64,000 nt of DNA, from assembly GCA_016206085.1 (NCBI GenBank), contig JACQSF010000009.1, forward strand, positions 9,412 through 73,411. Reading direction: 5' to 3'. Origin of the DNA: Candidatus Uhrbacteria bacterium (GTDB lineage Bacteria > Patescibacteriota > Patescibacteriia > UBA9934 > GWF2-40-263). The position numbers and the translations under genes are program-made. The notes beneath the pieces were generated by a model that worked only from the letters and a program-made list of their open reading frames with translations, searched no databases and was not told where the DNA came from. This document shows positions 46,523 to 62,460 of the stretch, in pieces (the stretch's first letter is position 1; each line of letters starts with the position of its first letter).

Positions 46523-46554
46523 ACGTCGATCATCATGCCTCATTTTGCAAAAAA

Positions 46555-46582
46555 GAAGAAGACCCCCATTTGGGGATCTTCT
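46555..46582 (-). terminator. Intrinsic terminator upstream of serS
   Basis: AAGAAGACCCCC-ATTT-GGGGATCTTCTT with an adjacent A-run (U-tract on the minus strand). Confidence 0.6.
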
Positions 46583-46584
46583 TG

Positions 46585-46947
46585 TTAAAACCCAGATTCA
46601 CCAGCGATCATCCCACCAAGGAGGTCGTCGACCTCATCTGCAAGATCTTGGAGATCGGCTGTGGAGGATGAGGAACTTGCGTCTACAGAACTATTCACAT
46701 CGTATTGTGCTTCCACACCTTCTGTCTCTTGATTCTCATCGGACTCTGCTTGTGTCTCTTCCTCTTCCACTTCGTTTTCGTCCTCCTCTTCTTGGTCTGA
46801 CTGATTCGAACGGCCAGAACGGTCTTGTCGGGTCTCCCCAGAGATATCCGCATCGACGTCCGCCTGCGTTTGTGCGCAGCCAGCTCCTAACAAAATGAGT
46901 ACAGACAAGAGTGGAAGAATGAGGGTCGGGGTGTAACGATTACGCAT
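46585..46947 (-). CDS. Acidic low-complexity lipoprotein
   Basis: Signal peptide ending LGAGC; E/D/S-rich body. Confidence 0.7.
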   Translation of the reverse strand: MRNRYTPTLILPLLSVLILLGAGCAQTQADVDADISGETRQDRSGRSNQSDQEEEDENEVEEEETQAESDENQETEGVEAQYDVNSSVDASSSSSTADLQDLADEVDDLLGGMIAGESGF

Positions 46948-46953
46948 AGAAAC

Positions 46954-47481
46954 TTAGGATGAAGTTTCTGTATTGAGGGAGGATTGGATCGCGTCGAAAA
47001 TGACTTCTACATGTGACTTGATCGATTGTCGAATCTCCTTGATCACCGCGATATTTTCTTTGACCGCCTCAAAGAGCGTTTTTGCGGTGGCGATCTGGTT
47101 GTCGTATTCCTCAATGGTCATCGTTGTACAATCAACCTGCGTCATAGCGGTTAAATTATCTTGAACAGCCTGGTGATCCGCAGCAAGATCTACAAGAGCG
47201 GATTCAAGGGCGGCGATATCTCCCTCCAGAGTGGAGGTATCTGCCCCGAGAGTTTGTGCTTTCTCAACAAATTTCTTGAGTTTCTCAATGGATTTATTCA
47301 TGCGTTCGATGTTTTTCGCGTGGCGAGTTTCGTTCGCCGTCAATCGTTCCTGTGAACGCGTGACCATGGCCTCACACTGAGCGCTCACATCGAAAGAACT
47401 TTTTGGCGTTTCTTGGGCAAACACTGCGGCAGAAGGGACGAGCATAGCTCCCACAACCGCCAGGATAAGAAATTTCTTCAT
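46954..47481 (-). CDS. Secreted coiled-coil protein
   Basis: MKKFLILAVVGAMLVPSAAVFA signal peptide; heptad repeats. Confidence 0.75.
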   Translation of the reverse strand: MKKFLILAVVGAMLVPSAAVFAQETPKSSFDVSAQCEAMVTRSQERLTANETRHAKNIERMNKSIEKLKKFVEKAQTLGADTSTLEGDIAALESALVDLAADHQAVQDNLTAMTQVDCTTMTIEEYDNQIATAKTLFEAVKENIAVIKEIRQSIKSHVEVIFDAIQSSLNTETSS

Positions 47482-47632
47482 AGAGAGAAATGTAAAGATT
47501 TATTTTCTGTTTTACAGTAACCGAACGTCTCAAAAAGGTAACAAGACTATATCCTTGGACAGAAAACTTCAGATTCTGAGAGGTTTTGATTCAAACTTAA
47601 CCATGGAAATAAGGAAGAGTCAATGGACTGTA

Positions 47633-47673
47633 TTTTCTTCAAGCAGGTCGGAAGCGAAGCTCCCGACAAATGA
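47633..47673. repeat. 41-bp hairpin repeat (GCGAAGC loop), copy 1
   Basis: 39/41 identical to 50101-50141. Confidence 0.85.
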
Positions 47674-47691
47674 AGCCCTTGTCGGAAACTG

Positions 47692-48405
47692 TCACTTGAT
47701 CGTCCACGTCTTGGGAAGACTACATTGATACCGTTTCTTCAAATGCTGATAGATCTTTTTGACCAACTGCATTTGCTGACTAACCTCATGTGTCTGATAC
47801 ACAGCACGAACAGACCGAACGAATCCCGCATCGCGGTGACTCAGGACCTCAATAGTTTCATCGAATCGACGAAAATAGTCTCCATGTTTACGCAAAACAC
47901 ATTCGATGGCGTTGTTTATAAACAGCTGTAGGTTGCAGGCAAACAACAACCGATCGTCGTTTTTGGCACTTCTTTCAAGCTCTCCCAAAAAATCATGCAA
48001 GGAGTAAGCATGCATGAGATAGTCACTTTTGCTCGTACGAGTTTTCCCATTCAAATTTTGTTTCGCCAATCGTTGTAAGACACGCAACTGAGGCGTACGT
48101 TCAAAAATGATCTTTCCATTCGCCAGTATATGCGAGGTCGGACGACGTAATGCGTTTCGGTCTTGCTGTAAAAAAGCCGTTGCGGTTTCCACAGAGTCAA
48201 TGATTACATCGATCAATATCTCGCCAACAAAAAATCCTTTTCGTGTTACTGCTGTAGATGTGCGTGTCAGCACGTACACATCAACGTCAGAAAACTGATC
48301 TGCCTTCCCGTTCACCACCGAACCAAAAACCATAATACCAACAACATTCTGATCGCGACTAAAATGGGACAATAAACGATCTTCTATACTCTTCATGTTG
48401 ATCAT
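47692..48405 (-). CDS. Nucleotidyltransferase (Pol-beta superfamily, KNTase-like) protein
   Basis: VFGSVVNGKADQFSDVDVYV (GS...DxD), third Asp in IDV, helical C-terminal domain. Confidence 0.82.
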   Translation of the reverse strand: MINMKSIEDRLLSHFSRDQNVVGIMVFGSVVNGKADQFSDVDVYVLTRTSTAVTRKGFFVGEILIDVIIDSVETATAFLQQDRNALRRPTSHILANGKIIFERTPQLRVLQRLAKQNLNGKTRTSKSDYLMHAYSLHDFLGELERSAKNDDRLLFACNLQLFINNAIECVLRKHGDYFRRFDETIEVLSHRDAGFVRSVRAVYQTHEVSQQMQLVKKIYQHLKKRYQCSLPKTWTIK

Positions 48406-48519
48406 AAAATAAAAACAGGAGCCGCACAGATGTGTTGAGTATACATCCGACGACCCCAGTCGTCACGTGCCGACCCTCAGCCTACATTCATTTATTTCTT
48501 GACAACTAATGTTTCTACT

Positions 48520-48863
48520 TTAAAAAAGAGCTGAGTCCTTTCACAAAGAGTAAGCATCAAATAATCCAACAGTTTTTCTCTCTCTGGGCAATGCTGAACG
48601 CCAGGCAGGCAACATCTCAAAGGCTCTCTTTTGGTACCAACAATACATCGATGAAAATGGTGAGGACTGGAATGTCTTGTCAAATATCGCCCTTGCAAAA
48701 TCGGATCAAACCGATATTGAGGGAGCAAGGTTAGCTGCAAAAAGCTTTGAAACTGTTCCCAACGACGGAACATCCGGAGATGAAAACGCTTCGAGAGTCG
48801 CTTGAGTCCATTGCTGGGAAACCTATCCACATCTCACCCACAGGTTTAGTCAAAAATGGCTGA
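48520..48863 (+). pseudogene. Degenerate TPR-protein gene
   Basis: NPTVFLSLGNAERQAGNISKALFWYQQ...VLSNIALA...ARLAAK, then a frameshift in an A-run, then ALKLFP...; in-frame TAA at 48551; resembles 50150-50800. Confidence 0.6.
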
Positions 48864-48900
48864 TTTTGGCCTGTTTTTGAGGTCTGGGGGTTGACAAAAC
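48823..48900 (+). promoter_or_regulatory. 78-bp duplicated upstream element containing TTGACA, copy 1
   Basis: 66/78 identical (ungapped) to 51658-51735. Confidence 0.75.
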
Positions 48901-48951
48901 TTATTTTTTCTGAAACTATCGGTTGTCGCAACCTACAGCCAAGGAGGCACC

Positions 48952-49671
48952 ATGCGGCTCAATCAGACCCGATCCTTCACGCCAATGAATATGGTCATCA
49001 TGGCCGTAGTCGCCATTCTTCTGGGGATGGGAACCAAGACCTCTTCAGTTTCCGAAAGACCACTGGCTCCTGTCGTGAGCGAGCCACGTCCGAGGAACGC
49101 GCCGTCCGCACAGACGTCCCAACCCTCGCGTGGAGAGATCAAGGAATTCTTCCTCACCCATCCGCAGAAAGGGGTGCGTGATGACTTCCATCACTTGCTC
49201 ATCAGTGGGCAAATGTCATTCGTCTGGAATGCGGTCGGCACTCCGGTAGCCACATTCGGCTTGATCCAAGATGGGGATAGCGAGCCTGTTCTGGCACTGC
49301 TGGCGGATCCAGAGATCTTTCTGGAACGCAACCGCTCTCTCGCGCAGATCACCATCTACCACGAATACCTGCATTACCTGCAGTGGCGGGATGGAACCAT
49401 TCCCGAGTCCGCGTTCTACATTCGTGATTCCATGCCTCACGACGAGGTACACGACTGGTGCAAACAAAAATGGCACGCCGAGCGTCTGGCGTACCATGAA
49501 GCGTGCGCGTTCGGCCGAGAAGCCGGCCTGATAGGCGATCTGCGACCCGGAGGGCCGTTGTCAGTCGTCTGTACGGCTGATGAACCCCAGTTCATTCCGA
49601 TCCTGAAGCGTGTCCTCACGCTCGCGGATCCATCGGGCCCCATGTGTTCCCAGACGTGGAACACGATCTGA
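48952..49671 (+). CDS. Exported hypothetical protein with HExxH motif
   Basis: AGGAGG RBS; N-terminal hydrophobic segment; IYHEYLHY with a downstream E (HAERLAY). Confidence 0.7.
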   Translation: MRLNQTRSFTPMNMVIMAVVAILLGMGTKTSSVSERPLAPVVSEPRPRNAPSAQTSQPSRGEIKEFFLTHPQKGVRDDFHHLLISGQMSFVWNAVGTPVATFGLIQDGDSEPVLALLADPEIFLERNRSLAQITIYHEYLHYLQWRDGTIPESAFYIRDSMPHDEVHDWCKQKWHAERLAYHEACAFGREAGLIGDLRPGGPLSVVCTADEPQFIPILKRVLTLADPSGPMCSQTWNTI

Positions 49672-49689
49672 CCAGACTGACCGACATTG

Positions 49690-49938
49690 TCAGTCTTTTT
49701 TGTTCCAGGATTCTACCGTGAGGGTTTCAGGCGGATGAAAGGCTAGATGCCTAGCCAGAATCCGTTCCCAAACTCCAGGCGGACAATCGAATTCGATGGA
49801 ACGGTAGGGCGAGCTGTCTTCGGCCTCACGGATGACACATCCATCCTCATTTGGGTGATCCCTTTCGATTGACTGATCGTTACAACCGTTCAGCAACGGA
49901 AGGACGATGAACGAAAGAACGTACAGGAACTGACGCAT
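49690..49938 (-). CDS. Small lipoprotein
   Basis: MRQFLYVLSFIVLPLLNGC lipobox; GAGG RBS. Confidence 0.55.
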   Translation of the reverse strand: MRQFLYVLSFIVLPLLNGCNDQSIERDHPNEDGCVIREAEDSSPYRSIEFDCPPGVWERILARHLAFHPPETLTVESWNKKD

Positions 49939-50100
49939 GGGAACCTCGTTGGTAAGTTGTCCAAAAAAATAACCCCCAATCGTTATGATCTGGGGGATTA
50001 TTTTTCTACCTTCACTACATCAGAAATCTGAGCTCCCGTCAATGGTCATGTGTGGACAACTCACCTGAGATGCTCGAGTCGTCATCAGGCAAAAAGTGCA

Positions 50101-50141
50101 TTTTCTTCAAGCGGGTCGGAAGCGAAGCTTCCGACAAATGA
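50101..50141. repeat. 41-bp hairpin repeat (GCGAAGC loop), copy 2
   Basis: TTTTCTTCAAGCGGGTCGGAAGCGAAGCTTCCGACAAATGA. Confidence 0.85.
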
Positions 50142-50149
50142 GGAACTCT

Positions 50150-50800
50150 TTATCTCCTTGGATTTAATCCTGATGCGGGAAGATCTTGAACGATCTCCAT
50201 CATGGCCTTTTGAAATCGCCGTCCACCCTCACTACTCCGTTCCTTCCGTGGCTTAGACCTGAAAAGACGAAGAGCAACCTTCGCGTAATGACGGGCCTGT
50301 TTCTTGATTCCTCGAGCCACGTTTAGCTGGGCGAGATTGTAAACACACCCAAAGTCGGATGGGTCTCGTCGTCGCAATCGCTTAATAAGACATTCTGCTT
50401 CCTTAAATTTGCCCAACTGAAAATAGGCGTAGGCCAAAGAAAACTCAACTTTTGATCCCTTAGGATCAACCTGAAATGCTTTTCGATACCACTTGAGTGC
50501 ACGTGGATCCTTACGATTTATGAGAATACGACCTAACCCAATCATCGCCATCGTGCATTTTGGATTGAGTCGCAATGCCTGACGATACGCATGGCGTGCG
50601 GCGGCTTCCATTTCTTTTCGTATTTTCGGCCAGAGTGGATTCGCTAAATGATCATACATAAACCCAAGATAACACCACTTGAGCTCCTTTTCTTCTTTTG
50701 TCGCAGCTTTTATGTTCTTCAAGTTTCGTATCCCGCTTCTTGGATCCAAAGACCACGCTGCTTTGAGATATGCCTTAGACAATTGATCTGTTATAGACAT
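50150..50800 (-). CDS. Basic tetratricopeptide-repeat protein
   Basis: AYRQALRLNP...GLG, WYRKAFQVDP...SLAYAYFQLG TPR motifs; start placed at MSITDQ. Confidence 0.8.
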   Translation of the reverse strand: MSITDQLSKAYLKAAWSLDPRSGIRNLKNIKAATKEEKELKWCYLGFMYDHLANPLWPKIRKEMEAAARHAYRQALRLNPKCTMAMIGLGRILINRKDPRALKWYRKAFQVDPKGSKVEFSLAYAYFQLGKFKEAECLIKRLRRRDPSDFGCVYNLAQLNVARGIKKQARHYAKVALRLFRSKPRKERSSEGGRRFQKAMMEIVQDLPASGLNPRR

Positions 50801-50979
50801 AGTTCCTAAAAAAATGCGCACCATGCAATGGTACGCTACAGGGTGAGAGAAGGCTACTTCATATGTTGTATCCCCAACGACCCGTTGACGGTGAAAGAAA
50901 AACCTGTTGTGATGGTTATGTAAGAACCCCTTCATTGCCTGCTTGTCGGGCTGGGGGTTGTTTTTGTTCGACTTAATCA

Positions 50980-51015
50980 GGAACATAAAGTTCACGATCG
51001 AAAACTTTATGTTCC
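50980..51015. repeat. 36-bp palindromic repeat, left copy
   Basis: GGAACATAAAGTTCACGATCGAAAACTTTATGTTCC; ends 6 nt before the ATG. Confidence 0.88.
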
Positions 51016-51021
51016 ACACCT

Positions 51022-51546
51022 ATGGCACAAAACCAAAAATCCAATAAGGTAACCCAAGAAATCATCGATACACTGGTCGAAGCTAGCGACCTTACTATCG
51101 AGTGGATGAACAACCCGTACAAACAATACAGACGGATTCGAGGAATCATGGAGCCGGAAGAGTGGGATCAAATCTTTCGAGAGAAAAAGAAACGTCGGGC
51201 TCTGAAAGAACTCAAACGCAAGAAATGGCTTACTGAGCGACGGGAAGGGAACCAAATCGTTTTTGAATTAGCAGAATCAGTCGCCATCCAACGTCTTAAA
51301 ACAATGATCCGATCAACGATTGCCGTCCTACCGGAACCATCGATTATTTTAGTAGCGTTTGATTTTCCTGAAGCGGCGAGAAAGGCCCGCGACTCGTTTC
51401 GATTTTTTCTGAAATCGGTCGGTTTCGGACAGAAACAGCTCAGCGTCTGGTTCTCCAACAAATCTATTCTTGATGAAATGCAGGCTCTGGTTCGTATACT
51501 CAAGATTGAAAAGTGGGTTAACATTTACCTCACGAGCGGAACATAA
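51022..51546 (+). CDS. PaaX-like protein (wHTH plus Cas2-like ferredoxin domain)
   Basis: RRALKELKRKKWL...FEL wHTH; LVAFDFPE..RKARDSFRFFLKSVGF...QLSVW matches the PaaX-central/Cas2-like signature. Confidence 0.82.
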   Translation: MAQNQKSNKVTQEIIDTLVEASDLTIEWMNNPYKQYRRIRGIMEPEEWDQIFREKKKRRALKELKRKKWLTERREGNQIVFELAESVAIQRLKTMIRSTIAVLPEPSIILVAFDFPEAARKARDSFRFFLKSVGFGQKQLSVWFSNKSILDEMQALVRILKIEKWVNIYLTSGT

Positions 51547-51573
51547 ACTTCACGATCGTGAAAAGATTGTTCC
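51538..51573. repeat. 36-bp palindromic repeat, right copy (contains the gene's stop codon)
   Basis: GGAACATAAACTTCACGATCGTGAAAAGATTGTTCC; 28/36 identical to the left copy. Confidence 0.85.
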
Positions 51574-51657
51574 TTGGAAACTCTTGCTTTGGCGATGTTC
51601 AAGCGCGAAGATTCAAAAGTGAGCGTTCGATCTAAAGAACAGCGTTTCGGCCGAAAA

Positions 51658-51735
51658 CTATCCACATCTCACCCACAGATTTTGCCAAAAATGGCTAATT
51701 TTGTCTCATTTTTGAGGCAAAGGGGTTGACAAAAC
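51658..51735 (+). promoter_or_regulatory. 78-bp duplicated upstream element containing TTGACA, copy 2
   Basis: CTATCCACATCTCACCCACAG...GGGGTTGACAAAAC. Confidence 0.75.
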
Positions 51736-51775
51736 CCCAAAAATAGGATCAAATGTCAATAGATAGAGGTGAATT

Positions 51776-52402
51776 ATGTCCAGGTCCCTCCTGGTTTCTC
51801 TCCTGCCCCTCGCCTTCGTGGTGGGGTGCGGGAACAGCACCGGCGGCACCTGCGCCGGCGCCGAGTGCGACGCCACCGACGTCGACTCCGACTTCTCCGC
51901 GATGTTCCACAACGTCGCCCCCTACGGTTGGGTAGGTGACCACCTGGTGTGGCCGTACGACGAGAACTCGATGGGAATCGAGCCTCTGTGTTCCTCGGTC
52001 AACGAGTGCAACGCCGAACTCTCGGAGTTCGGGACCAGGATGGTCGACATCGACGGTGACACCTTCATGTGTGTCCCTCAGCTCCTCATCGTGGGCGAGG
52101 TCGACGACGGCACGACCGTCGACGCGACTTCTCCATGGCTAGGTGAGGGCATGTGTGGCCTCGCACCTGAGGGCGAAGACGATGGCTGGGAGGTACGTAC
52201 CGACATCCACGACCTCAACAGCGACGGGGATGACGAGGTGATCATTCACATCGCTTCCTGGACGGCGATCGTCACGGGCTCCGAATTCTTCTACGAGGAG
52301 GACGAGTACCTCCTCGAAGGCTGGATCTCGGAAGACCTCAGCCAGGTCTACTTCCACCGCGTCGTCGAGACAGGCGAGACAGAGCGGACACTCGACCTGT
52401 AG
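51776..52402 (+). CDS. Acidic Cys-containing lipoprotein
   Basis: GAGGTG RBS; MSRSLLVSLLPLAFVVGC lipobox; GC-rich codon usage. Confidence 0.72.
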   Translation: MSRSLLVSLLPLAFVVGCGNSTGGTCAGAECDATDVDSDFSAMFHNVAPYGWVGDHLVWPYDENSMGIEPLCSSVNECNAELSEFGTRMVDIDGDTFMCVPQLLIVGEVDDGTTVDATSPWLGEGMCGLAPEGEDDGWEVRTDIHDLNSDGDDEVIIHIASWTAIVTGSEFFYEEDEYLLEGWISEDLSQVYFHRVVETGETERTLDL

Positions 52403-52458
52403 GAACCACCGTCTCTGACGGTACGCGCGACTCACTCACACGGAGTCGCTATTTATTT

Positions 52459-52487
52459 AAAAGACGAGCTTCAGAAGCTCGTCTTTT
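52459..52487. terminator. Bidirectional intrinsic terminator
   Basis: AAAAGACGAGCTTC-A-GAAGCTCGTCTTTT between convergent genes. Confidence 0.75.
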
Positions 52488-52494
52488 TGTGAGC

Positions 52495-55400
52495 TTACTC
52501 AGTTAGAATTTTCACGACCCCATCGTAATTGATCCAAGGATTTACTATCCTACCACTAGAATCTTCACATATACTGTCAGAATTATTTTCAGATGGACAT
52601 TCCTCAATGTTACACTCATCCTGCGTACTACTTCCTATCACTCCCGTATAACACCCCTCGGTCCCATCATCACCTGCCGTACAGTATCCCGTGCACCAAC
52701 CCCAGTTGTCCATCACGTGTACACGGGGCTGGAAGACACAGAAGTCCCCACTCACGCAAGGCGAGTAGATTAGCCTTCCGTCTTCTTCATCAAAGATACA
52801 CTCACGACCTTCCAGCTGCGCCAACCGTCCTGTGGTACAAGTGTAATCATGCGTAAAGGCGATATAAGAACTGCTACAGGCGTTAGATGATTGGCCAAAT
52901 TCATCCGGATCATTGCTGCACTCCTGTGAATCTGAAACGGAATTGAGTCCTCTATAGTTTTTATAGAAATTATTTCGAGCAATTGATCCGCTATAAGAAC
53001 CAAACGGCCATGGATTGGAATTGCCACCAATCCCAGCCATATTATCCCCCCAATCAACAATCACACGCCGGATCGGCATTTGATCCGAGTCCGCATAGGC
53101 ATAAAACGCTACCGTTACATGCTTGGATCCCTCGCCTTCAATATCGGCACTATCAACTTCATTCACAGAGAACTTGTTTTTCACTCCCTCGTAGCAAAGC
53201 GTTCCCTCACACTCGCCAATGGAAACGATCGTTGGAGCCTTATCTTCTGGATTATCTTGAGCGCTTGCTCGTGTGTCCCAAATCCAATCAGAGAAACTTG
53301 TTTCAAAATTATCTGTGTCAAAATCAAATCGTTCGAAGTCTCCCAGCGGTTCACGATCCGTAAAGATTGTTTCGTTTGTCGGGATGACTCCGGTGTCCAC
53401 CTCCCCGTATCCGTCATCGGTAAACTCAACAATACCGTAAATGCGTCCGAAGATCTGAGAAAGAAGCCCTATGGCATCCCCTTTTGAACCAACGGATAAC
53501 GCATACACTGGGGCATCATCATTTGCAATACAGGTCGCGCCCGATAACTGACGACTCCCATCTGTCGAATACGAACCATGGCAATAGTTGACCCAGCAGG
53601 TCTGATCTCCTTCACATGCCAGTCCATCATAGGAACCCCCCACACAGGTCCCAGCGGCACAGGCTCCATCAACGCCTTCATCCTCACAGGTATCATCCAC
53701 CCCATCTTCATTCGCGTCGATAAACGAACAGCTAATACTGTTGTCATTCTCACAATACCCGCCGCCACAATACACAGCCGCACCCGAACTGCTGTTCCAA
53801 TTGCACCATTGCTCATTTTCTTCACCGCTATCATTGCAATCACAATCAACATTCAAACAATAGCTTGAAATCACATCCGTCTGTACTGTCAATGAAACAT
53901 CCCTATTGGCTCGTGCATCTTCCCCACTACTGCTCGTCACCACGTCTCCCGAATCGCAAACTAAATCGACAGGTGGTAGCTCCTGTCCATAACCCTCAAC
54001 AAGACACATGGCCAATACCCAGGGTTCTGGGTCTCTCTCTAATTTAAGCGAAAGATAATCCGTCGCAATCCCATAGGGGGACTGTAACGAGCCGAATTGG
54101 TAGCCTAAGAAACTTGGATTGGAACTTGAAAGAGGTTGCGTGTTACTTTCATGATCCCAGAGCTTGTTTGTCCATGCCGCATTATACGTATCAAACGGGA
54201 GAACCTGCTCATCTTGAGTGGATTTTGCAGACACTTGAACCACGCTTGTGCAAACAGCACCAGGAACAAAATTATTATTCAAATTCCGAAATCCTTTTCC
54301 CGAGAGAGCTCCTCCCGCATCATAGGTTGAAAGCAGAAAGTCAACACCCCCTCCTGTATATTCACTATAACTAAACGCTTCGGCTCCTTCACTGAGAACC
54401 CCCCGCGCTTCACAATCGTCATAATAATCAACCGCCGTATCAAAATCTGTCGGAGGCAAAACGTACACACGGATATTTGGTGCGGCTAATCCCGCCCAAT
54501 GATCGCCCACCGAATTCACATTTAGGTAGTAGGCTCCCGTGGGTGCATCCGCGTCATTGTTCGCAGTAAACGGGGACGACTCGACGGTGATCCCTAATGC
54601 GGCATCCGGGGTCAAACACGTATCTCCGGACACTCCTCTATCATCATCTTGAGTTTTATAGGAAAGTTTTGGAACACAGAAATAGGGACAGTCTTTATCA
54701 CCGGAAGCCGTACATTCATTGTTTGTGTCATTTGACCCACAACCCGTCATCACAGCGAAGAATCCATCAGGACACCAAACAGCGGCAACACAATCATCTT
54801 GAGAATCTCTTGAATTATCCGCTTCATTGCTGAAATGTTGCCAATCGGAACCGTCATTACAGTTGTTATCTTGTACTTCCGCACAGGCGATCTCACTTGT
54901 TCCAACGGTGTATCCTAACTCCACCTCCGCACAGTAATACGTGTCCTGTGGTTGGTATCCAGCGGACGTATACTTTGCGTAGAGGTCTGTGGCGCCCGTA
55001 AGCTGGTCAACAGGAAGCCACGTTAAACAGGCTTGATCCTCTGGCGCGGATGAACCAAGCGTTTGGATCGATGAATCTTTTTCAATACAGTAGCCATTCC
55101 ATCCGTACACGGAATCAACACGGCTCACATAGGAACAGATGCCGGATTGCGTCGTTTTTCCGTCGGTACTCGTAAAAGAACAGTCGTCATCATCTTGGCA
55201 GGGAATTCCATTCACAGGACCGCCTGAACAAATTCCCTCGGGAACATCGGCAACTCCTGTCCCTAGTTCAAAGTATCGATAGCCTGTCCCGTCTCCATAT
55301 TCCGCCTTATCATAAGAACAAATACAATCAACAGGATTGCCAGAAGCATCTATCGCACAAGTGGTTGAATCCTGGAACCCATTAACGTAGCTATAGGGAA

Positions 55401-58400
55401 GAGCCGCCTGGCTGGTTGGAGGATTGACCTTTGAGTTGGAGTCAGAAGAAACAGGACTTTCTCCATCTGCCTCAATGTTCTCCGCTGTGTATTGAATCCA
55501 GTACTGCACCACATCCGTCGGGAACGGCGAATCAATCTCTGGATAGGCCCGACAGGACTGTTCACGAGCATCATCCACCTCAAGACGATCCGCAAAACCG
55601 TCACCATTTACGTCCAGAATATCTGTCAAACAGCGATCGTTGAAACAAGAACCCGTTGTTGATGTTGAGGCTGGAACACAGGTGCGATTGGAGGAGTCTG
55701 TCACGCAGGCGTCACGATATAACACATTTGTCGTCAGCTCATCCACACAGACAAACCCAATAGGATCACAAATCAATGTCGAAATGCCGCTGGACGATGT
55801 CACGCCGGAGCAATCCGCATTTGTTCCGTTCCCTTCGTTTTCGTCAGGATTACAGGAACAATCTTCATCACAACCCACCGTCCCCGTTGCTTGCAAGTAT
55901 CCAACCACACAGGACTCTCCATCTGAACAGTCGTCATCACTTGCACAGGAGACCGCGGAATCCTCACAATGCCCGATCACACAAGATCCCCCGTTTCCGT
56001 CCCCAGACTCCGTCGAGTCACAGGGTCCCGCGTTATAGACCAGTCGGTAGTCTGTTTCATTTGAATTTTCGCAGGCGAAATAGCACTGCCCGCTTGCCCG
56101 GTCGCACACGCCAGAAGCGTGACCACTGTTGCTCGTACAATCTGAATCAGTCGAGCAGCGTGCGGAGCTATCCAATGGACAATCCGCATACGACCCGCAC
56201 GCGCGTGGAAGCGTCGTATCCCCTTGAGTAATATAAGCTGATCCGGTGAGTGCCACTCCTGATGAATTGACACACACTGACTGGGCGGCAATGTTGTACT
56301 GGTCGTACAACTCAACTGGGAGCTGGTTTGGAATCGCATTTCCCGAATACTCATACCCCGTCCAACTTACATCGCGGACGGAATAGTGATACGCAGAAAG
56401 AATCGATGGGTCACTCTGATCCCATTGAGAACAAATTGCACGGTCTCCCTGCTGTTGTCCTTCCACACACAAGTTAATCGAATCACAAATCGTGTCATAC
56501 GTGTTGGTTTGTGTGTTCCAACTGGTGCGCGAACTCTCGCAAGAAAGCCATGCCGCACAGCTACGATCACGATTCACTTTTATCACCTCATTGGTGTCGT
56601 CCTCCAGAGCATAGGCATCAACAACATCGGTACAGGTTCCGCTCACATCTTCTCCCTTATAGGTAGTGAGAAGGCCACAGTCGGAATCAACAAAGCAGGA
56701 GCCATTGTAATAGACTGTATCTACCGCCCCCTGCTCTGAACCTGTTGTTGTGAGCTGATCCCCACTCTCAACCGTGTAGGCACAACGCCTGGCACAAAGA
56801 TCAACTTCTGTTCCTGTCCCGGCAATCGCCGCGTCGGCATCGGAAATCGTGAATACCCCACCGTCTTGTGTCGTACAACTAATCGGATCCACGAGATCGT
56901 TCATTTCTGTTCCGTAGAACACATCCGCATGGGTCGAAAGTACGTAGCTGGCGGAGGCATGGTAGGTTAATTCTGAAACAGTCGTATTATTAAAAAGGGC
57001 ACATCCAAACTTCTGACTCACTTGGCCGTTACAACGTTGCGAGTCCGTGAGCGTGTCTTCACTCAACAGATCGTCGTTGGTGAAATAATAGGACTGGCCG
57101 TCTTCATTGAGGCCTCCACCCGTGTCAACGACATCAATAAACTCGGTACACAAATCATACTTACTGCTACAACTTGCAACCCATCCATCATAGAAATCCC
57201 AATAGTCTGTGTCGCCATCGTCCTGGTCTCCATTATTCCAAACCCCAAATTCCTCGCCCGCAATCAAGTACGCTTCATCCTCATCCTGATCATAGACCCC
57301 ATCCCCATCTTTATCTTCCCAGTAACACGGTTCGTTTGTTCCGGTTCGGAACCACCCGAAGTAGGAACGGTTGTTGATCGTCACGCTGGTCTTGTATTCA
57401 CATTCTTTATCAAGCGGATCTTTAAAATAGAAATTCCCGTCTTGTGTTGACGCCCACTCCTCGCAGAACAAGGCTTCTTGATCGCACAAAATACTGTCGT
57501 AATCCGCAGGTAAGTTGATGTAATACACCGACTCAAAACTCTCCACTTCACGTTGGTCTTGCGTGTAGGTTGGTTTACCAAGCTCCTGACACCCCATCGC
57601 GCTGGAAGCACATTGATCGCTCTCATCCGCAACAATGTACACAGGCGTATCACCCGGAACAATCACGGTCTCCGAACCATACACGACGGCATAATACTCG
57701 CTGGAACTTACCTCCTCCACAGGGAGATCTCCTGGGAACGCCTGATCGGCATCAAAAAGACAGTAACTCTCTCCCACGATAATCGTGCAGTATTCAATCT
57801 CGTTGATCTTACACGCGGTGTTTCTAGTGACCACATCATCGTCTGTAAAATCCGTGTCTGAGGAATACATGCACCTGGCGTTGTACACCTGCGTGTAAGG
57901 CGAATCTGAATTGGCCGTGTGATAAAACCCCTCGCATCCCACAACCTCTTCTGAACACAGATCTGAAAACTGATACAGATCAACCGCACTCCCGTTATGA
58001 TCCGTGTAGGCTTCACAACCCAGGTAGTATTGGTCTGAATCAACACCTTCTGGCGTTTGATCACAGGTCGACGGAACCACCCAGGAATTTTTTATGATCG
58101 TAATATTCTCTTCGACCTGCTTGAGGGTGACGTTATCAAGATAAAACTCCATTTCCGCATCCGTGGCAAAACGGACTACCGCATTCTCATCAAAATCTGC
58201 ATAGGCGGACGTATCCACGGGTCCAAGGGAATAGAGAACCCACGATCCATCCAGGGCAACAGGAGTGAGATCGGAAACACCGCTGTTTGGATCGACGAAG
58301 TCATGTACGTCTCCCGCTCCTCCTTGCTCCCCAAACGTCACGTAGAGATTCCCATTTCCCTTGGCCCAAAAATCCAACACAAACGTCTTTCCCGCCACAA

Positions 58401-61400
58401 GATACCCCGTCAGAGCCCCACAACTCTCTTGTCCATCCAAGACGGAACAATCTTCATCGTCTGAACCATCCCCATCAATATCATCGGCGATATCGCATCC
58501 GCTATCGCCAATGGTTCCTCCATTACTCGTACAGGTCGTCGAAGTTCCTGCTGCGTCTCCAGCTTCATCATAGATCTCCGTTGTCACGGTAGAATCAAGA
58601 TAGATCTGTGTCGTTTCAATTCCTGCCATTCCACTTGAAGGAGCAAGGACATACAAAGAATGTCCTTCAGTCGCGACAGACTCATTGCTGATCGAAATTT
58701 CATCCGGATAATTCCCAATTTCTGCCATGACAAAATCTTCGTAGGTCCCTCCTTCAAATGTTTCCGAAAGGATCGTGGTCGCGTTGCGACCGGTCCCTCC
58801 TGTATATTCGCGGCAGCCGTTTTGTTCGGCCGGACAATCAACGCTCTCCTCAGGTAGGACATAATAACGACAGAATCCTTGGTCAGTCCACCATCCACCT
58901 GAATCCTCACAATCCGTTTCTTCACTTTCATCTTTTCGATAGGCAGAACACGCGTCTGAAATAGAAATCGTGTCTGAGTACTGACGGTAATGGATATTCC
59001 CTTTCGTATCGAAAAACTCCCGACAATCTGGATTGTTAAAAATATCATCATGCTCATCGCAGTCCTCGTTTGTCCAGACATCTGCCGTCAAATTTGCAGA
59101 GGTATCATCACACACGACCACATTTTCAGACGTCATCTGACGATGGGTACACGGGGCAAGATCAATCGCAAGTTCGGTGTATCCACTTGAGACAAACGTC
59201 TGACTCCCGGATGCGCTATTTGACTGCAACAGAGACCATGTTTGCAACTGGTAGCCTTCGTTGTCTGATCCTTCCCAGGTGAAATACGTCGCGGGTGTTT
59301 TGTTGGTGGCTGTGGCGTCCGCAATGTCAGGGCTCAAACAGAATCGAAGATCTGTATAGTATTCAATCCCCTCACCTCCCGCGTCAACGGCTCCGAGGTT
59401 TGTATACGAATCACATCCTACGTACTGCGATGCGCACACGCTTGCGCTGTCGGCGATAAAGTAGAGTGGGAATGACTCACGTTCAAAATCCGTGGCTTCT
59501 TGTTTGTACGTTGTGTACCCAACACACTCACTTGGACACGTATCAAGATCCGAGATAATCGCCGGCACATTCGGATCTCCGTCCTCTGGTGTGTACAGAC
59601 GACACCCTACTTCCTGTGCGGTACACACCTGGGCATACGAGTCACATTCCTCTGGATCTGTATCGTTTCCCGTGCATCCCAAGTAGCTTGGGGCAACCTG
59701 GTAGTACACTTGTGTCGGAGTACCGCTGTACCCCTCCGCAAAGATATTTGCATCTTCCCCAAGTTCGAGTTGCACCGCATCGATGTACACTTCATCAGAA
59801 GAGTAGAACGAAGAATTTCCGACTCCCACGCGAATCTGAACCGTTCCTTCCGGCGCAGTCACAAGACACTCAAATCGTTCAAAATCAGCCGTATCTGGTT
59901 CTTCAACCATCAGATACAAGTTAAACACACTGCTCCACTCACAATCTCCAGAAGACGATGTCCCGGAAGCATCAATGGAATTTCCGTCTTCATCTAAAAA
60001 GAGGAGGAGACCCACACCGCTATCACCCGATGTCTGTGCCTGAAAATAGGTACTGAAGGTATAAAAATTATTCTCAGAGGCACTGATATCCTGATAGAGA
60101 TAATTCAGGGTGCCTGCAGAATAGAGAAGTGAAGTCGACCCAAACTCTGAATTGCTTGTATCAAGCGTGTATCCTCCTGCTGTCAACGGAACCCATCCAT
60201 CAGGCGTTCCATCCGCGTCCTCATCCTCCTCAAACGAAGGATTCTGCACGCTGTTGAGATACACCGTCTCATCGAACTCATACAATTGGGTACAACCGAC
60301 ATCATTCTCACTACATTGTGTCGCGTCATTGGTGAGATAGAGACGATCCTCATAGGCATACTGTTCATACGTATACGTTTCACCAGAATCAGAAGTATAG
60401 ACGTACGATGTTCGTCCCACTGATCCACTCCCATCCCAGTAATTCCAATCCACGTCTCGCTCTTCTAGAAGATACTCATCTCCTGTGGCAAGCCATTCAT
60501 ACGTATCATCTTCTGTGTCCGTCGTCCCCGCATCCTCAAGATACTTATTTGTACGGTACCAACGACACCCAGCATTATCCTGATCACAGACACTGTAGTT
60601 CACCGTACTCACAAGAAAATCTCCATCGTCCCCTGTTTGGGTATTCGTAAACGAAAGACAGGTGGCGTACTGTGCCGGACACTCGTCGCCACGGAACCGC
60701 CAGACGTTCTTCTCCTGGGTGCAGTACCCATAGCCATCAACACAATTTCCCTTGTTATCCTCCCCAATACAACTTGGTGAATCAACACACGTCGTGTTGC
60801 GCCCGCTGGAAAGCGTTGAAATACGGATCTCGCCGTTGCCCACAGCGCGACATTCTGTTTTTGGATATTTCAAGACCCAGTTTGGATCAATGAGATGACA
60901 CCACTTGCTGTCAGAATCCGACGTGCTTGCCGACCCAATGGTTCCCTCTTGCGTACAATCATTGAACCCATCGATCACTTCTTGGAGCGTGGCGGGATTG
61001 GATTCACTGTTGCGACTTGCAGCCAACTCCCATCCAATCGGGAGCACGCGCGCTTTGCGCAGCTTCACAAGGTTTCCGTAGCAATACCCGTAGGTATAAC
61101 AAAACGGATCTTGGTTGGCGGCTTCGTTGTCAGGCGCAATGAGTGGCCAATCTCCATCAAGCAACCCCTCATCAATCGCCTCTTGCACCGTTAACGGGAC
61201 ACCGGCAGTTCCACGATTCACGGCTGCCAAAAAGTTCACGTCCATGACACAGTTATAGAGTCCTCGGTTGATCGTTCCTTGTGCTGTACACACAACAAAC
61301 TCGGAAAGCGCATCATACTCGGTCGTGGCGATTGGATTTGTTGTGATGATCGACGCAAATCGTTCCTGCGCCGCCTCCCTGTCCCCGGCTCCGACCGCTT

Positions 61401-62460
61401 CCAGGTCAAACGGATCGACGACCTCAGTATCAAACAATCCGGTATAAATTCGGTTAAGAAGCTGGGACAACAAGACGTTTGTAAAGGTCGACGCGGTCGA
61501 AAGGGCAAGACCCCCAATGAGATCTCCGGCGTTAGCAAGCTCGCCAACACGAATTTGAGAATCATCCCCTTTTGCTTTCTTGAGTGCCTCCTCAAAATCC
61601 GCTTGGAGCGTTTCAGAAGGTGTTTTAACCGTTCCCGTAATAAAGTCCTTTACGTTTTTATAGGTACTCTCGTTGCGCTCCAAAAACTGAAGCAATTTCT
61701 GTTCGTGAACTTTCTGGTCAATGGCGATATTAATACGTAACGTCGCTGTCAATTCGTTTTGACCCGGTTTAAGAGCACTGGCAAATGTTTTTAGAATTGC
61801 TTCCTGTCTTCCTTCTGGATCGAGATATTTCTGATAAATATCTGCTCCAAATTTCTCCCAATTACCCAGAACCTCCATGAAGTCACATTTGGGCTCGCTG
61901 GGTTGATACTTTTGTTTGATTCCCAATGAAAGAGCAAGTTGAAGGCTCTGGGAGGATGGTTGACACAGATCAAATTCAATTCCTAATTTGCTGGAAGAAA
62001 GTTGAGACATACTCCCAATCGCCTCTCCTGCGACTTCCAACCCCAACTGACCAAACGCTTCCGATGGAGTCTGATTGTAAAACAACGAGTCCTCACCAGG
62101 ACCACCCGAAGCAATCGCCACGGCTGCCTCGTAAGCAAGGCGGTTGAGCACAAACTGAGAAAGATTCAGCAGAGCCTGAATGAGCGCAATACGAAATGTC
62201 GGAGACAAAATCTTTTCTCCGACAATCTGCAAACTCTGTTTGATTCCTTTTTGTGGACACGGGACGGGGGAGGGACCACCAGACGTACATCCTCCTTCCG
62301 CGGCACCAGCTGCCAACTCCCCAGCCGCAATGGCCGCGGAATCCACGGCGTAGACCGGTTGCACAAAAGAAAAAATACCGACAACCAAAAATACTCCTAC
62401 ACACAAAGACAAAACTCCGGCCACGAACCATCGTTTGTGTTTGTGCCAGAACAGTCTCAT
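52495..62460 (-). CDS. Giant (3321 aa) Cys-rich acidic surface protein
   Basis: Uninterrupted 9966-nt ORF; N-terminal signal/TM; many Cys clusters (CxxDxDC), CBM-like segment (NPSFE...PDGW), DxDGDG Ca-binding motifs. Confidence 0.9.
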   Translation of the reverse strand: MRLFWHKHKRWFVAGVLSLCVGVFLVVGIFSFVQPVYAVDSAAIAAGELAAGAAEGGCTSGGPSPVPCPQKGIKQSLQIVGEKILSPTFRIALIQALLNLSQFVLNRLAYEAAVAIASGGPGEDSLFYNQTPSEAFGQLGLEVAGEAIGSMSQLSSSKLGIEFDLCQPSSQSLQLALSLGIKQKYQPSEPKCDFMEVLGNWEKFGADIYQKYLDPEGRQEAILKTFASALKPGQNELTATLRINIAIDQKVHEQKLLQFLERNESTYKNVKDFITGTVKTPSETLQADFEEALKKAKGDDSQIRVGELANAGDLIGGLALSTASTFTNVLLSQLLNRIYTGLFDTEVVDPFDLEAVGAGDREAAQERFASIITTNPIATTEYDALSEFVVCTAQGTINRGLYNCVMDVNFLAAVNRGTAGVPLTVQEAIDEGLLDGDWPLIAPDNEAANQDPFCYTYGYCYGNLVKLRKARVLPIGWELAASRNSESNPATLQEVIDGFNDCTQEGTIGSASTSDSDSKWCHLIDPNWVLKYPKTECRAVGNGEIRISTLSSGRNTTCVDSPSCIGEDNKGNCVDGYGYCTQEKNVWRFRGDECPAQYATCLSFTNTQTGDDGDFLVSTVNYSVCDQDNAGCRWYRTNKYLEDAGTTDTEDDTYEWLATGDEYLLEERDVDWNYWDGSGSVGRTSYVYTSDSGETYTYEQYAYEDRLYLTNDATQCSENDVGCTQLYEFDETVYLNSVQNPSFEEDEDADGTPDGWVPLTAGGYTLDTSNSEFGSTSLLYSAGTLNYLYQDISASENNFYTFSTYFQAQTSGDSGVGLLLFLDEDGNSIDASGTSSSGDCEWSSVFNLYLMVEEPDTADFERFECLVTAPEGTVQIRVGVGNSSFYSSDEVYIDAVQLELGEDANIFAEGYSGTPTQVYYQVAPSYLGCTGNDTDPEECDSYAQVCTAQEVGCRLYTPEDGDPNVPAIISDLDTCPSECVGYTTYKQEATDFERESFPLYFIADSASVCASQYVGCDSYTNLGAVDAGGEGIEYYTDLRFCLSPDIADATATNKTPATYFTWEGSDNEGYQLQTWSLLQSNSASGSQTFVSSGYTELAIDLAPCTHRQMTSENVVVCDDTSANLTADVWTNEDCDEHDDIFNNPDCREFFDTKGNIHYRQYSDTISISDACSAYRKDESEETDCEDSGGWWTDQGFCRYYVLPEESVDCPAEQNGCREYTGGTGRNATTILSETFEGGTYEDFVMAEIGNYPDEISISNESVATEGHSLYVLAPSSGMAGIETTQIYLDSTVTTEIYDEAGDAAGTSTTCTSNGGTIGDSGCDIADDIDGDGSDDEDCSVLDGQESCGALTGYLVAGKTFVLDFWAKGNGNLYVTFGEQGGAGDVHDFVDPNSGVSDLTPVALDGSWVLYSLGPVDTSAYADFDENAVVRFATDAEMEFYLDNVTLKQVEENITIIKNSWVVPSTCDQTPEGVDSDQYYLGCEAYTDHNGSAVDLYQFSDLCSEEVVGCEGFYHTANSDSPYTQVYNARCMYSSDTDFTDDDVVTRNTACKINEIEYCTIIVGESYCLFDADQAFPGDLPVEEVSSSEYYAVVYGSETVIVPGDTPVYIVADESDQCASSAMGCQELGKPTYTQDQREVESFESVYYINLPADYDSILCDQEALFCEEWASTQDGNFYFKDPLDKECEYKTSVTINNRSYFGWFRTGTNEPCYWEDKDGDGVYDQDEDEAYLIAGEEFGVWNNGDQDDGDTDYWDFYDGWVASCSSKYDLCTEFIDVVDTGGGLNEDGQSYYFTNDDLLSEDTLTDSQRCNGQVSQKFGCALFNNTTVSELTYHASASYVLSTHADVFYGTEMNDLVDPISCTTQDGGVFTISDADAAIAGTGTEVDLCARRCAYTVESGDQLTTTGSEQGAVDTVYYNGSCFVDSDCGLLTTYKGEDVSGTCTDVVDAYALEDDTNEVIKVNRDRSCAAWLSCESSRTSWNTQTNTYDTICDSINLCVEGQQQGDRAICSQWDQSDPSILSAYHYSVRDVSWTGYEYSGNAIPNQLPVELYDQYNIAAQSVCVNSSGVALTGSAYITQGDTTLPRACGSYADCPLDSSARCSTDSDCTSNSGHASGVCDRASGQCYFACENSNETDYRLVYNAGPCDSTESGDGNGGSCVIGHCEDSAVSCASDDDCSDGESCVVGYLQATGTVGCDEDCSCNPDENEGNGTNADCSGVTSSSGISTLICDPIGFVCVDELTTNVLYRDACVTDSSNRTCVPASTSTTGSCFNDRCLTDILDVNGDGFADRLEVDDAREQSCRAYPEIDSPFPTDVVQYWIQYTAENIEADGESPVSSDSNSKVNPPTSQAALPYSYVNGFQDSTTCAIDASGNPVDCICSYDKAEYGDGTGYRYFELGTGVADVPEGICSGGPVNGIPCQDDDDCSFTSTDGKTTQSGICSYVSRVDSVYGWNGYCIEKDSSIQTLGSSAPEDQACLTWLPVDQLTGATDLYAKYTSAGYQPQDTYYCAEVELGYTVGTSEIACAEVQDNNCNDGSDWQHFSNEADNSRDSQDDCVAAVWCPDGFFAVMTGCGSNDTNNECTASGDKDCPYFCVPKLSYKTQDDDRGVSGDTCLTPDAALGITVESSPFTANNDADAPTGAYYLNVNSVGDHWAGLAAPNIRVYVLPPTDFDTAVDYYDDCEARGVLSEGAEAFSYSEYTGGGVDFLLSTYDAGGALSGKGFRNLNNNFVPGAVCTSVVQVSAKSTQDEQVLPFDTYNAAWTNKLWDHESNTQPLSSSNPSFLGYQFGSLQSPYGIATDYLSLKLERDPEPWVLAMCLVEGYGQELPPVDLVCDSGDVVTSSSGEDARANRDVSLTVQTDVISSYCLNVDCDCNDSGEENEQWCNWNSSSGAAVYCGGGYCENDNSISCSFIDANEDGVDDTCEDEGVDGACAAGTCVGGSYDGLACEGDQTCWVNYCHGSYSTDGSRQLSGATCIANDDAPVYALSVGSKGDAIGLLSQIFGRIYGIVEFTDDGYGEVDTGVIPTNETIFTDREPLGDFERFDFDTDNFETSFSDWIWDTRASAQDNPEDKAPTIVSIGECEGTLCYEGVKNKFSVNEVDSADIEGEGSKHVTVAFYAYADSDQMPIRRVIVDWGDNMAGIGGNSNPWPFGSYSGSIARNNFYKNYRGLNSVSDSQECSNDPDEFGQSSNACSSSYIAFTHDYTCTTGRLAQLEGRECIFDEEDGRLIYSPCVSGDFCVFQPRVHVMDNWGWCTGYCTAGDDGTEGCYTGVIGSSTQDECNIEECPSENNSDSICEDSSGRIVNPWINYDGVVKILTE

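Follow-up and report, generated by a model that had tools for sequence, protein, structure and literature searches.

At positions 50,980 to 51,573 of the 64,000-nucleotide stretch of Candidatus Uhrbacteria DNA analysed here (the window), a small gene lies between two palindromic repeats, a layout that raises the question of what the pair of repeats does. The original prediction had offered two answers: a minimal mobile cassette whose protein recognises its own palindromic ends, in analogy to REP/RAYT systems or attC cassettes, or a double-operator autoregulatory unit. Our preferred answer, to which we give about an even chance, is a REP/RAYT-like system in which the protein would bind its double-stranded site and promote the copying of that site; double-operator autoregulation and spreading may also hold together.

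The gene, its product and its two palindromes

The features of the locus are the following.
50869-50979 (+): upstream stretch conserved with the nearest relative, in which the adjoining gene differs
50980-51015 (no strand): left palindrome, 36 bp, 16/18 arm pairs, centre CGATCG, ending 6 nt before the ATG
51022-51546 (+): gene of 174 aa, with N-terminal helices, a winged helix and a Cas2/VapD-like (PaaX_M) domain
51184-51315 (+): winged-helix region, approximately residues 55-98 (AlphaFold2 H55-66, E70-75, E78-83, H85-98; ArsR-type wHTH profile matches)
51343-51534 (+): Cas2-like domain, approximately residues 108-171 (PF20803; profile and Foldseek matches to type II Cas2 and VapD HP0315)
51361-51372 (+): codons D114-F-P-E117, with the invariant Cas2-type Asp and with E117, which co-varies with the palindrome centre
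51442-51444 (+): codon S141, the invariant Ser of the QxSVW motif
51538-51573 (no strand): right palindrome, 36 bp, 13/18 arm pairs, centre CGATCG

Both repeats were confirmed to the nucleotide, as dyads that are 28/36 identical to each other (in direct and in reverse-complement comparison alike), the right copy supplying the last two codons of the gene together with its TAA stop (51544-51546). The pair score of the locus was 57 as against a maximum of 42 in shuffled flanks, and the scan for further copies in the genome that contains the window (G000, 877 kb, 83% complete) returned two positions besides the pair with at least 25/36 matches to either palindrome, the background ending at 24; a chance repeat was rejected on these grounds. 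The left palindrome, a putative binding site of the encoded protein, folded into a stable hairpin (z -5.4) and the right one folded weakly (z -2.2). In the nearest relative (G001) the left palindrome is flipped relative to that of the window, matching it at 33/36 positions as reverse complement vs 29/36 in direct orientation. As for the claim that the unit is repeat-gene-repeat with almost nothing else, the layout stood, with one qualification: approximately 110 bp 5' of the left palindrome are also common to G001 though the next gene differs, so that the arriving unit may be larger than repeat-gene-repeat. This stretch likely holds the promoter of the gene; a consensus promoter and terminator scan, which overall performed at chance level, found none in 50869-50979.

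The predicted PaaX/Cas2-like identity was borne out, since the protein had PF20803 (PaaX_M) as its sole Pfam match (residues 110-169, E 4.3e-13), passed the TIGR01573 cas2 model narrowly (25.4 bits, cut-off 24.5) and was modelled by AlphaFold2 (pLDDT 91.8) as helices, a winged helix and a ferredoxin-like C-terminal domain. It scored 19.1 bits with the TIGR02277 PaaX model (cut-off 264.55) and 17.5 with the VapD model NF041506 (cut-off 100). Foldseek ranked PaaX 8a39 at the top (E 1.9e-4), followed by type II Cas2 chains and, lower, by VapD HP0315, and a single-sequence search of the PDB gave one weak match. A profile built from 139 family sequences matched Cas2 across the FD...QxSV motif as well as ArsR-type winged helices, and listed no PaaX at E values up to 0.5; the PF20803 search returned no control-genome sequence. 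Prediction of a homodimer of the 174-aa protein scored 0.02 (mark 0.42) and carries no weight for or against a dimer. The family comprises 719 representatives (clusters at 50% identity) at E values up to 0.001, with members in 23/40 genomes of the order and, by Pfam, in 28/121 genomes of the phylum.

PaaX (PDB 8a39, 3l09) shares with the window protein a winged helix followed by a Cas2-like domain, and a long palindromic site; the E. coli study describes binding to a 39-bp palindrome and repression of PaaX's own promoter (PMC9493321). The window protein differs in its length (174 aa vs a 279-position model and a 305-residue chain), ends 5 residues past the PaaX_M match and lacks the C-terminal phenylacetyl-CoA-sensing domain, and here the sites lie at both gene ends, spread into coding sequence and have their specificity signal in the Cas2-like loop. 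The neighbours examined at the locus encode TPR, nucleotidyltransferase and unknown proteins, with no paa genes among them. PaaX identity was rejected on the missing sensing domain and on a TIGR02277 score far below the cut-off.

With type II Cas2 and VapD the protein shares the motif FD...R...R...GF..Q.SVW with its invariant Asp and Ser, and a DNA span of approximately 36 bp. D114 was invariant in 139/139 family sequences and in the 58/58 paired loci analysed below, S141 was invariant too, and P116, R123, R127, L130, F135 and W143 were conserved in at least 90% of the 139 sequences. According to the study of VapD HP0315, the exchanges D7A and S43A lower its RNase activity (PMC3351183); judging by motif position, D114 and S141 would be the equivalents of D7 and S43. 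The invariance of the Asp fits catalysis but does not prove it, because in a type V-A Cas2, as reported in PMC13034035, this residue acts in metal binding and dimer behaviour, a non-nucleolytic role. Catalysis by the protein itself is the weakest step of our reading, and a doubtful one.

These likenesses invite the suggestion of a degenerate CRISPR or toxin module, whether as an orphan Cas2/VapD RNase left between two relic repeats or as an RNase whose target is its own hairpin-bearing transcript, which the 36-bp palindromic repeats, the cas2 score barely above cut-off, the conserved VapD-type Asp and Ser and the hairpin of the left copy would suit. We consider this highly improbable in view of the winged-helix fusion, a protein standing alone between its own sites with no Cas1, array or antitoxin partner found, repeats that vary by locus and track the protein, and a right copy that folds weakly. 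No Cas1 was detected in 5/5 genomes searched (83-100% complete), and no antitoxin gene lies between the two repeats. A CRISPR relic was rejected for the lack of Cas1 in these five genomes and of any spacer array, and for its two repeat copies with a gene between them.

Palindrome pairs across the family and their co-variation with the protein

Consistently with the expectation of flanking palindromes at homologues across Patescibacteria, pair scores exceeded the shuffled-flank maximum in 61 of 72 homologue loci of the order (the other 11 having no pair) and a pair was present in 14 of 30 loci outside the order set (28 from a phylum sample and two from a separate search for protein relatives), with none in 16. 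The two flanks were at least 24/36 identical in 56/72 loci of the order, while flanks taken from mismatched loci averaged approximately 16/36. L234 was omitted, the family HMM having given no gene there. All three family genes of G000 were bracketed, each of the two paralogues by its own, different palindrome pair. The flanks mostly abut or overlap the start and stop codons, with the left copy at the start codon in most loci; they are direct or inverted depending on the locus, their half-sites are AT-rich and their ends vary freely between loci. Four loci of the phylum sample (L338, L339, L342 and L345), which belong to one family and of which three have 161-aa open frames, carry no flanking pair and possibly represent a fixed, domesticated branch.

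Co-variation was analysed in 58 loci, after exclusion of the 14/72 without a confident pair. Protein identity correlated with half-site identity (Mantel rho 0.36, with 0/300 permutations as high, the loci including kin that are not independent). The strongest single association linked residue 117, which lies three positions C-terminal to D114, to the base two positions away from the palindrome centre: CG at -3/-2 was found in 36 of the 38 loci with Glu at this position and in none of the 20 others. On a quick-search tree the CG label changed four times, three of these changes being forced by strong branches, and since the label thus recurs in separate clades the association is not one inherited coincidence, even though kin are not independent. 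The palindromes had been expected to co-vary with the helix of the wHTH; co-variation with the protein was found, with its strongest signal in the Cas2-like loop rather than in the wHTH.

This co-variation strongly implies that each protein binds its cognate site, which we regard as very probable. Numerous flanks have poor self-complementarity but are close matches to the flank at the other gene end (in L026, 10 and 8 of 18 pairs at 32/36 identity), which argues that double-stranded DNA rather than a hairpin would be recognised; hairpin-dependent recognition as a general rule was rejected, since many flanks are poor hairpins.

Single copies outside the pair and inside housekeeping genes

Beyond the pairs, the proposed search for more copies found the flanking repeats as dispersed singles in several genomes. 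G000 contains 15 singles of a type named B, approximately three of each of its two paralogue types and two weaker window-type copies, and none of four palindrome types whose gene was not found in it, with 0-1 in reversed controls. The two window-type singles match at 27/36 (vs one in the reversed control), and one of them is common to G001; across 40 genomes the window-type pattern was present in two, exactly those with a close orthologue. The core of a further type, B', was found at 10 sites in G001, 11 in G013 and three in G008, each of which carries a B'-flanked homologue, at one site in G010 and in none of the remaining 36 genomes, and a third core was almost confined to gene flanks. B sites were also found where no B-flanked gene was detected, in G000 (15), G001 (7) and G002 (3); the locus at which G004 carries its B gene is absent from the G000 assembly; in G001 it is occupied by a B'-type gene and in G002 it is vacant. 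A scan of viral contigs for the window-type pattern gave no match, and a metagenome scan gave one contig (1,493 bp) with a single copy after a gene end and no family gene.

Composite and unrelated repeats were noted alongside. In G001 (L081:1700-2650, contig C9) a duplicated 449-bp unit is a mosaic of the window type, B, B' and another type and carries diverged small ORFs, a likeness to composite REP clusters. G000 also holds a second dispersed palindrome family, with arms containing GAAGCAATC and many copies unrelated to the 36-bp types (C2:10133, C8:42399, C10:16050, C23:41594, C27:29699, C29:7911 and others).

Single copies often lie mid-gene or between converging genes, and some at gene starts; the housekeeping genes hit are unrelated and differ between sister species. 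We compared orthologues codon by codon in 16 gene-by-type cases from 11 genes, picked for follow-up rather than as a census (gene names being labels for matched Pfam families). Six cases are net insertions, nine are same-length replacements and one is shorter by 3 nt (rlmD), the reading frame is kept in all 16, and the in-gene copies mostly match the palindrome type of a gene in the same genome. Filled sites and their empty counterparts, which the cassette idea predicted, were found in hflX (+30 nt in G000; in G004 +39 nt, of a different type that matches the paralogue L092 of that genome; three empty orthologues), in uppP (+24 in G004 and +33 in G001; five empty orthologues) and in miaA (+93 in G000; four empty orthologues). 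The miaA insert, a composite that includes a second hairpin, matches the right end of a cassette in G004 and lies mid-site, the empty form in G001 being already B-arm-like; a further insertion, in a coupling-protein gene of G004, was compared with G000 only.

Same-length replacements affect rdgB, queA (twice), a pseudouridine synthase gene, rlmD (twice), cobO and one unnamed gene, and the ninth is a window-type copy in a membrane-protein gene, common to G000 and G001. In four genes the same spot holds different palindrome types in different genomes, and the type that G001 carries in queA is shifted by one base, hence in a different reading frame, and encodes a wholly different peptide. Such block gains and frame-shifted replacements are beyond point mutation, and the blocks need a copying step. 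In G004, rdgB (L075:2030-2100, contig C9) has lost everything from the start codon up to the left edge of its in-gene palindrome; what is left is the palindrome and a 3' remnant.

The layout of these genomes fits the REP/RAYT analogy of the original prediction. Two RAYT studies describe genes flanked by two REPs, with a GT(A/G)G head, that co-evolve with them (PMC2817692) and that are mostly inherited vertically and persist in place (PMC5581495). Two cognate palindromes around a gene, dispersed copies, protein-repeat co-evolution, composite clusters and a vertical gene recur here. The window protein differs in being a winged-helix, Cas2-like protein instead of an IS200/Y1 one (PF01797, whose matches in its own genome lie elsewhere), and the palindromes differ in having AT-rich, often poorly paired arms in place of a GT(A/G)G head with a GC-rich hairpin, in being direct or inverted around the gene, in numbering approximately 1-16 per genome instead of hundreds, and in lying in many cases within genes, often replacing coding sequence at equal length. 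RAYT identity was rejected, there being neither a Y1 domain nor a GT(A/G)G head.

In-frame palindromic inserts in protein genes are also known from Rickettsia palindromic elements, which add peptide segments and measure approximately 100-150 bp; to our knowledge these have no known cognate protein. Here the element is 36 bp long, belongs to a cognate flanked gene and often replaces sequence rather than adding to it.

Another enzyme might mobilise the palindromes, a RAYT/IS200-type Y1 transposase or a XerC/D-type recombinase acting on a 6-bp core, with the small protein as accessory or guard. Y1_Tnp matches in 4/5 genomes (one of them in the same island of G001), tyrosine recombinases in 4/5 genomes, the composite miaA insert with its second hairpin and the resemblance of arms around a 6-bp centre to recombinase sites speak for it. 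We find it improbable, given that a genome with 16 B cores, G004, gave no Y1_Tnp match, that flanks such as those of L026 are poor hairpins matching their partner, unlike hairpin substrates, and that dozens of gene-tied arm sequences would be ill-suited to one host recombinase.

A more serious competitor, which we nevertheless place below an even chance, is a protein that binds and does nothing more, either a minimal repressor of the PaaX kind or a chromosome-binding protein, its gene having an operator at each end for autorepression and perhaps looping; extra operators would arise through host recombination or template switching between palindromes and be kept where useful or harmless. Its best structural match is PaaX, which binds a palindrome of similar span and represses itself (PMC9493321), in most loci the left copy lies against or across the start codon, some single copies stand at gene starts and the genes are syntenic within the genus. 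Several in-gene sites are moreover common to species at approximately 50% synonymous divergence, and this is as compatible with selection for binding as with rewriting. Within the in-gene cores that persist across species, synonymous codons were identical at 24/25 positions against a background of 577/1149, a comparison biased by the choice of sites by the same pattern and discounted for this reason and for an rlmD row in the wrong frame. Unlike a regulon, though, many copies lie mid-gene or between converging genes and vary between sister species; the block insertions and frame-shifted replacements go beyond the reach of point mutation; a passive process alone leaves the match of new copies to the resident gene type unexplained; and the ligand-binding C-terminal domain of PaaX is missing.

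Movement of gene and repeats, proposed mechanism and the surrounding island

The window-type gene was found in 2/8 genomes of the genus. In G002, whose corresponding region lies on one contig, there is neither gene nor repeat: an empty site retaining one repeat had been envisaged in relatives, this gene-free locus has no single-repeat scar, and single-scar excision was rejected for the window locus. The paralogue beside yifB occurs in G001, G003, G004 and G006, is broken in G012 and is absent from G002, G005 and G007, and the yifB site of G011 has a palindrome and a candidate gene that the family HMM does not recognise. The paralogue on C28 is syntenic in three species, and on the quick tree the paralogues of a genome, though at different loci, often group as sisters, as five in G013 do. 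A homologue in G012 (L233:3400-4000, contig C9) has an internal stop, no upstream palindrome and several degenerate downstream copies. Judged by these comparisons, the genes are gained, lost and occasionally copied, yet persist in place over genus-level time, and it is the repeats, more than the gene, that appear to move. The mobile-cassette proposal thus survives in part: repeats spread, and cargo lies between duplicated repeats, but the genes are syntenic within the genus, at odds with frequent hopping of the whole repeat-gene-repeat unit.

The cargo was found in G001, which is syntenic with the window from serS to a 3,300-residue gene and whose orthologue is 80% identical. There the right repeat is present as two copies that share a 40-bp identical stretch and are separated by 1,369 bp, with approximately 1.3 kb of cargo between them; the window has one right copy, after which its sequence continues like that following the second G001 copy. 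Since the two G001 copies are alike and differ from the right copy of the window at 4/36 positions, the duplication, or its homogenisation, post-dates the split.

Contigs assembled from four runs of one study, one of them possibly the source, branch at the same right repeat, the shared 37-letter piece having a depth of 40.3 vs 21.7 and 29.1 alongside; three of the runs have alternative flanks past 51576 and one has them ahead of 51537 (weak). This branching fits a filled variant in the population, or another locus or organism. Among the joints listed for the contigs of these runs, in which rare forms are dropped, there was neither the circular junction envisaged for a cassette nor one marking deletion of the gene from between its repeats. 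In run X1 a contig over 51136-51420 has approximately half the depth of its neighbours, which suggests a strain variant inside the gene, and all four runs contain an unexplained joint from 50835 to 47988 with 13 letters between.

In integrons, an adjacent IntI integrase and the core boxes of attC define cassettes, and the G001 cargo resembles attC and pdif arrangements in lying between copies of a short palindromic site. The analogy did not hold further, as there is no integrase at the locus, the tyrosine recombinases of G000 are all on other contigs, the bracketed gene encodes a DNA-binding protein of another fold, the palindrome type changes with the gene, sites lie inside genes and the repeat ends vary freely; an attC cassette was rejected on the location of the recombinases and the absence of constant repeat ends.

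In the REP/RAYT-like reading that we prefer, a dimer would cover the 36-bp site, its winged helices lying on the arms and its Cas2-like domains on the central 6 bp, a placement suggested by residue 117, which tracks the central bases. The Asp/Ser centre might then introduce a nick or cut at or close to the midpoint of a site, cognate or near-cognate, which is the least certain step, and host repair templated on another copy would write the palindrome into the cut site. Such cut-and-repair would explain same-length replacement, type-for-type replacement, matching flank changes and cargo capture between duplicates. The gene would be mostly vertical and rarely move, as RAYT genes do, and the left copy would probably also repress the gene's own expression.

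A stronger version, which we think unlikely, makes the Cas2-fold protein itself the enzyme that, in a new class of mobile element, acts site-specifically: it would cut centrally, overwrite sites and capture cargo. Two winged helices would measure the 36-bp palindrome and the Cas2 active site would cut its centre; near-matching chromosomal sequence, coding sequence included, would be overwritten with protein length kept; and there would be dozens of orthogonal protein-site pairs, with central specificity set partly by one loop residue. This would give Cas2 a Cas1-free, transposase-like role.

A literature search at abstract level, covering few subscription journals, found no description of such a gene-palindrome system, though supplements of CPR family surveys may mention the family. 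Since it lacks the defining traits of RAYT, PaaX, CRISPR and attC systems yet behaves as a mobile-repeat system, we class it as a new kind; should the protein merely bind, it would instead be a variant of the repressor-plus-operator theme. If our preferred reading is true, it assigns a function to an orphan "Cas2/PaaX" family that is common in Patescibacteria, shows how short selfish DNA can rewrite the sequence of housekeeping proteins, in frame and often at equal length, and bears on the origin of Cas2 and on the question whether a Cas2 fold is able to act at a defined DNA site with no Cas1. The natural protein-site pairs and the candidate specificity residue make it directly testable, and might provide orthogonal DNA-binding parts.

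The locus belongs to a variable island between serS and the giant gene (46543-52495), whose gene content differs in G001, G002 and G007; a Y1 transposase-like gene adjoins serS in G001, G003 and G006. Within the island, a 45-nt direct repeat with an internal palindrome (47629-47673 and 50097-50141, 93% identical) brackets approximately 2.4 kb of variable genes; it belongs to another repeat family, is a second case of cargo between duplicated palindromes and has copies with other flanks in the run contigs. An 83-nt direct repeat (48818-48900 and 51653-51735, 84% identical) stands ahead of two variable genes, and similar modules are present at the island in G001 and G002; with its DnaA-box-like motif and TTGACA, it is presumably a reusable promoter module. 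On the minus strand, 47692-48405 encodes a Polbeta-type nucleotidyltransferase whose matches to MntA and Lnu/ANT are weak and all far below cut-off, and 52495-62460 is a 3,321-aa Cys/Asp-rich ORF with a predicted N-terminal membrane segment and a similar length in relatives of the genus.
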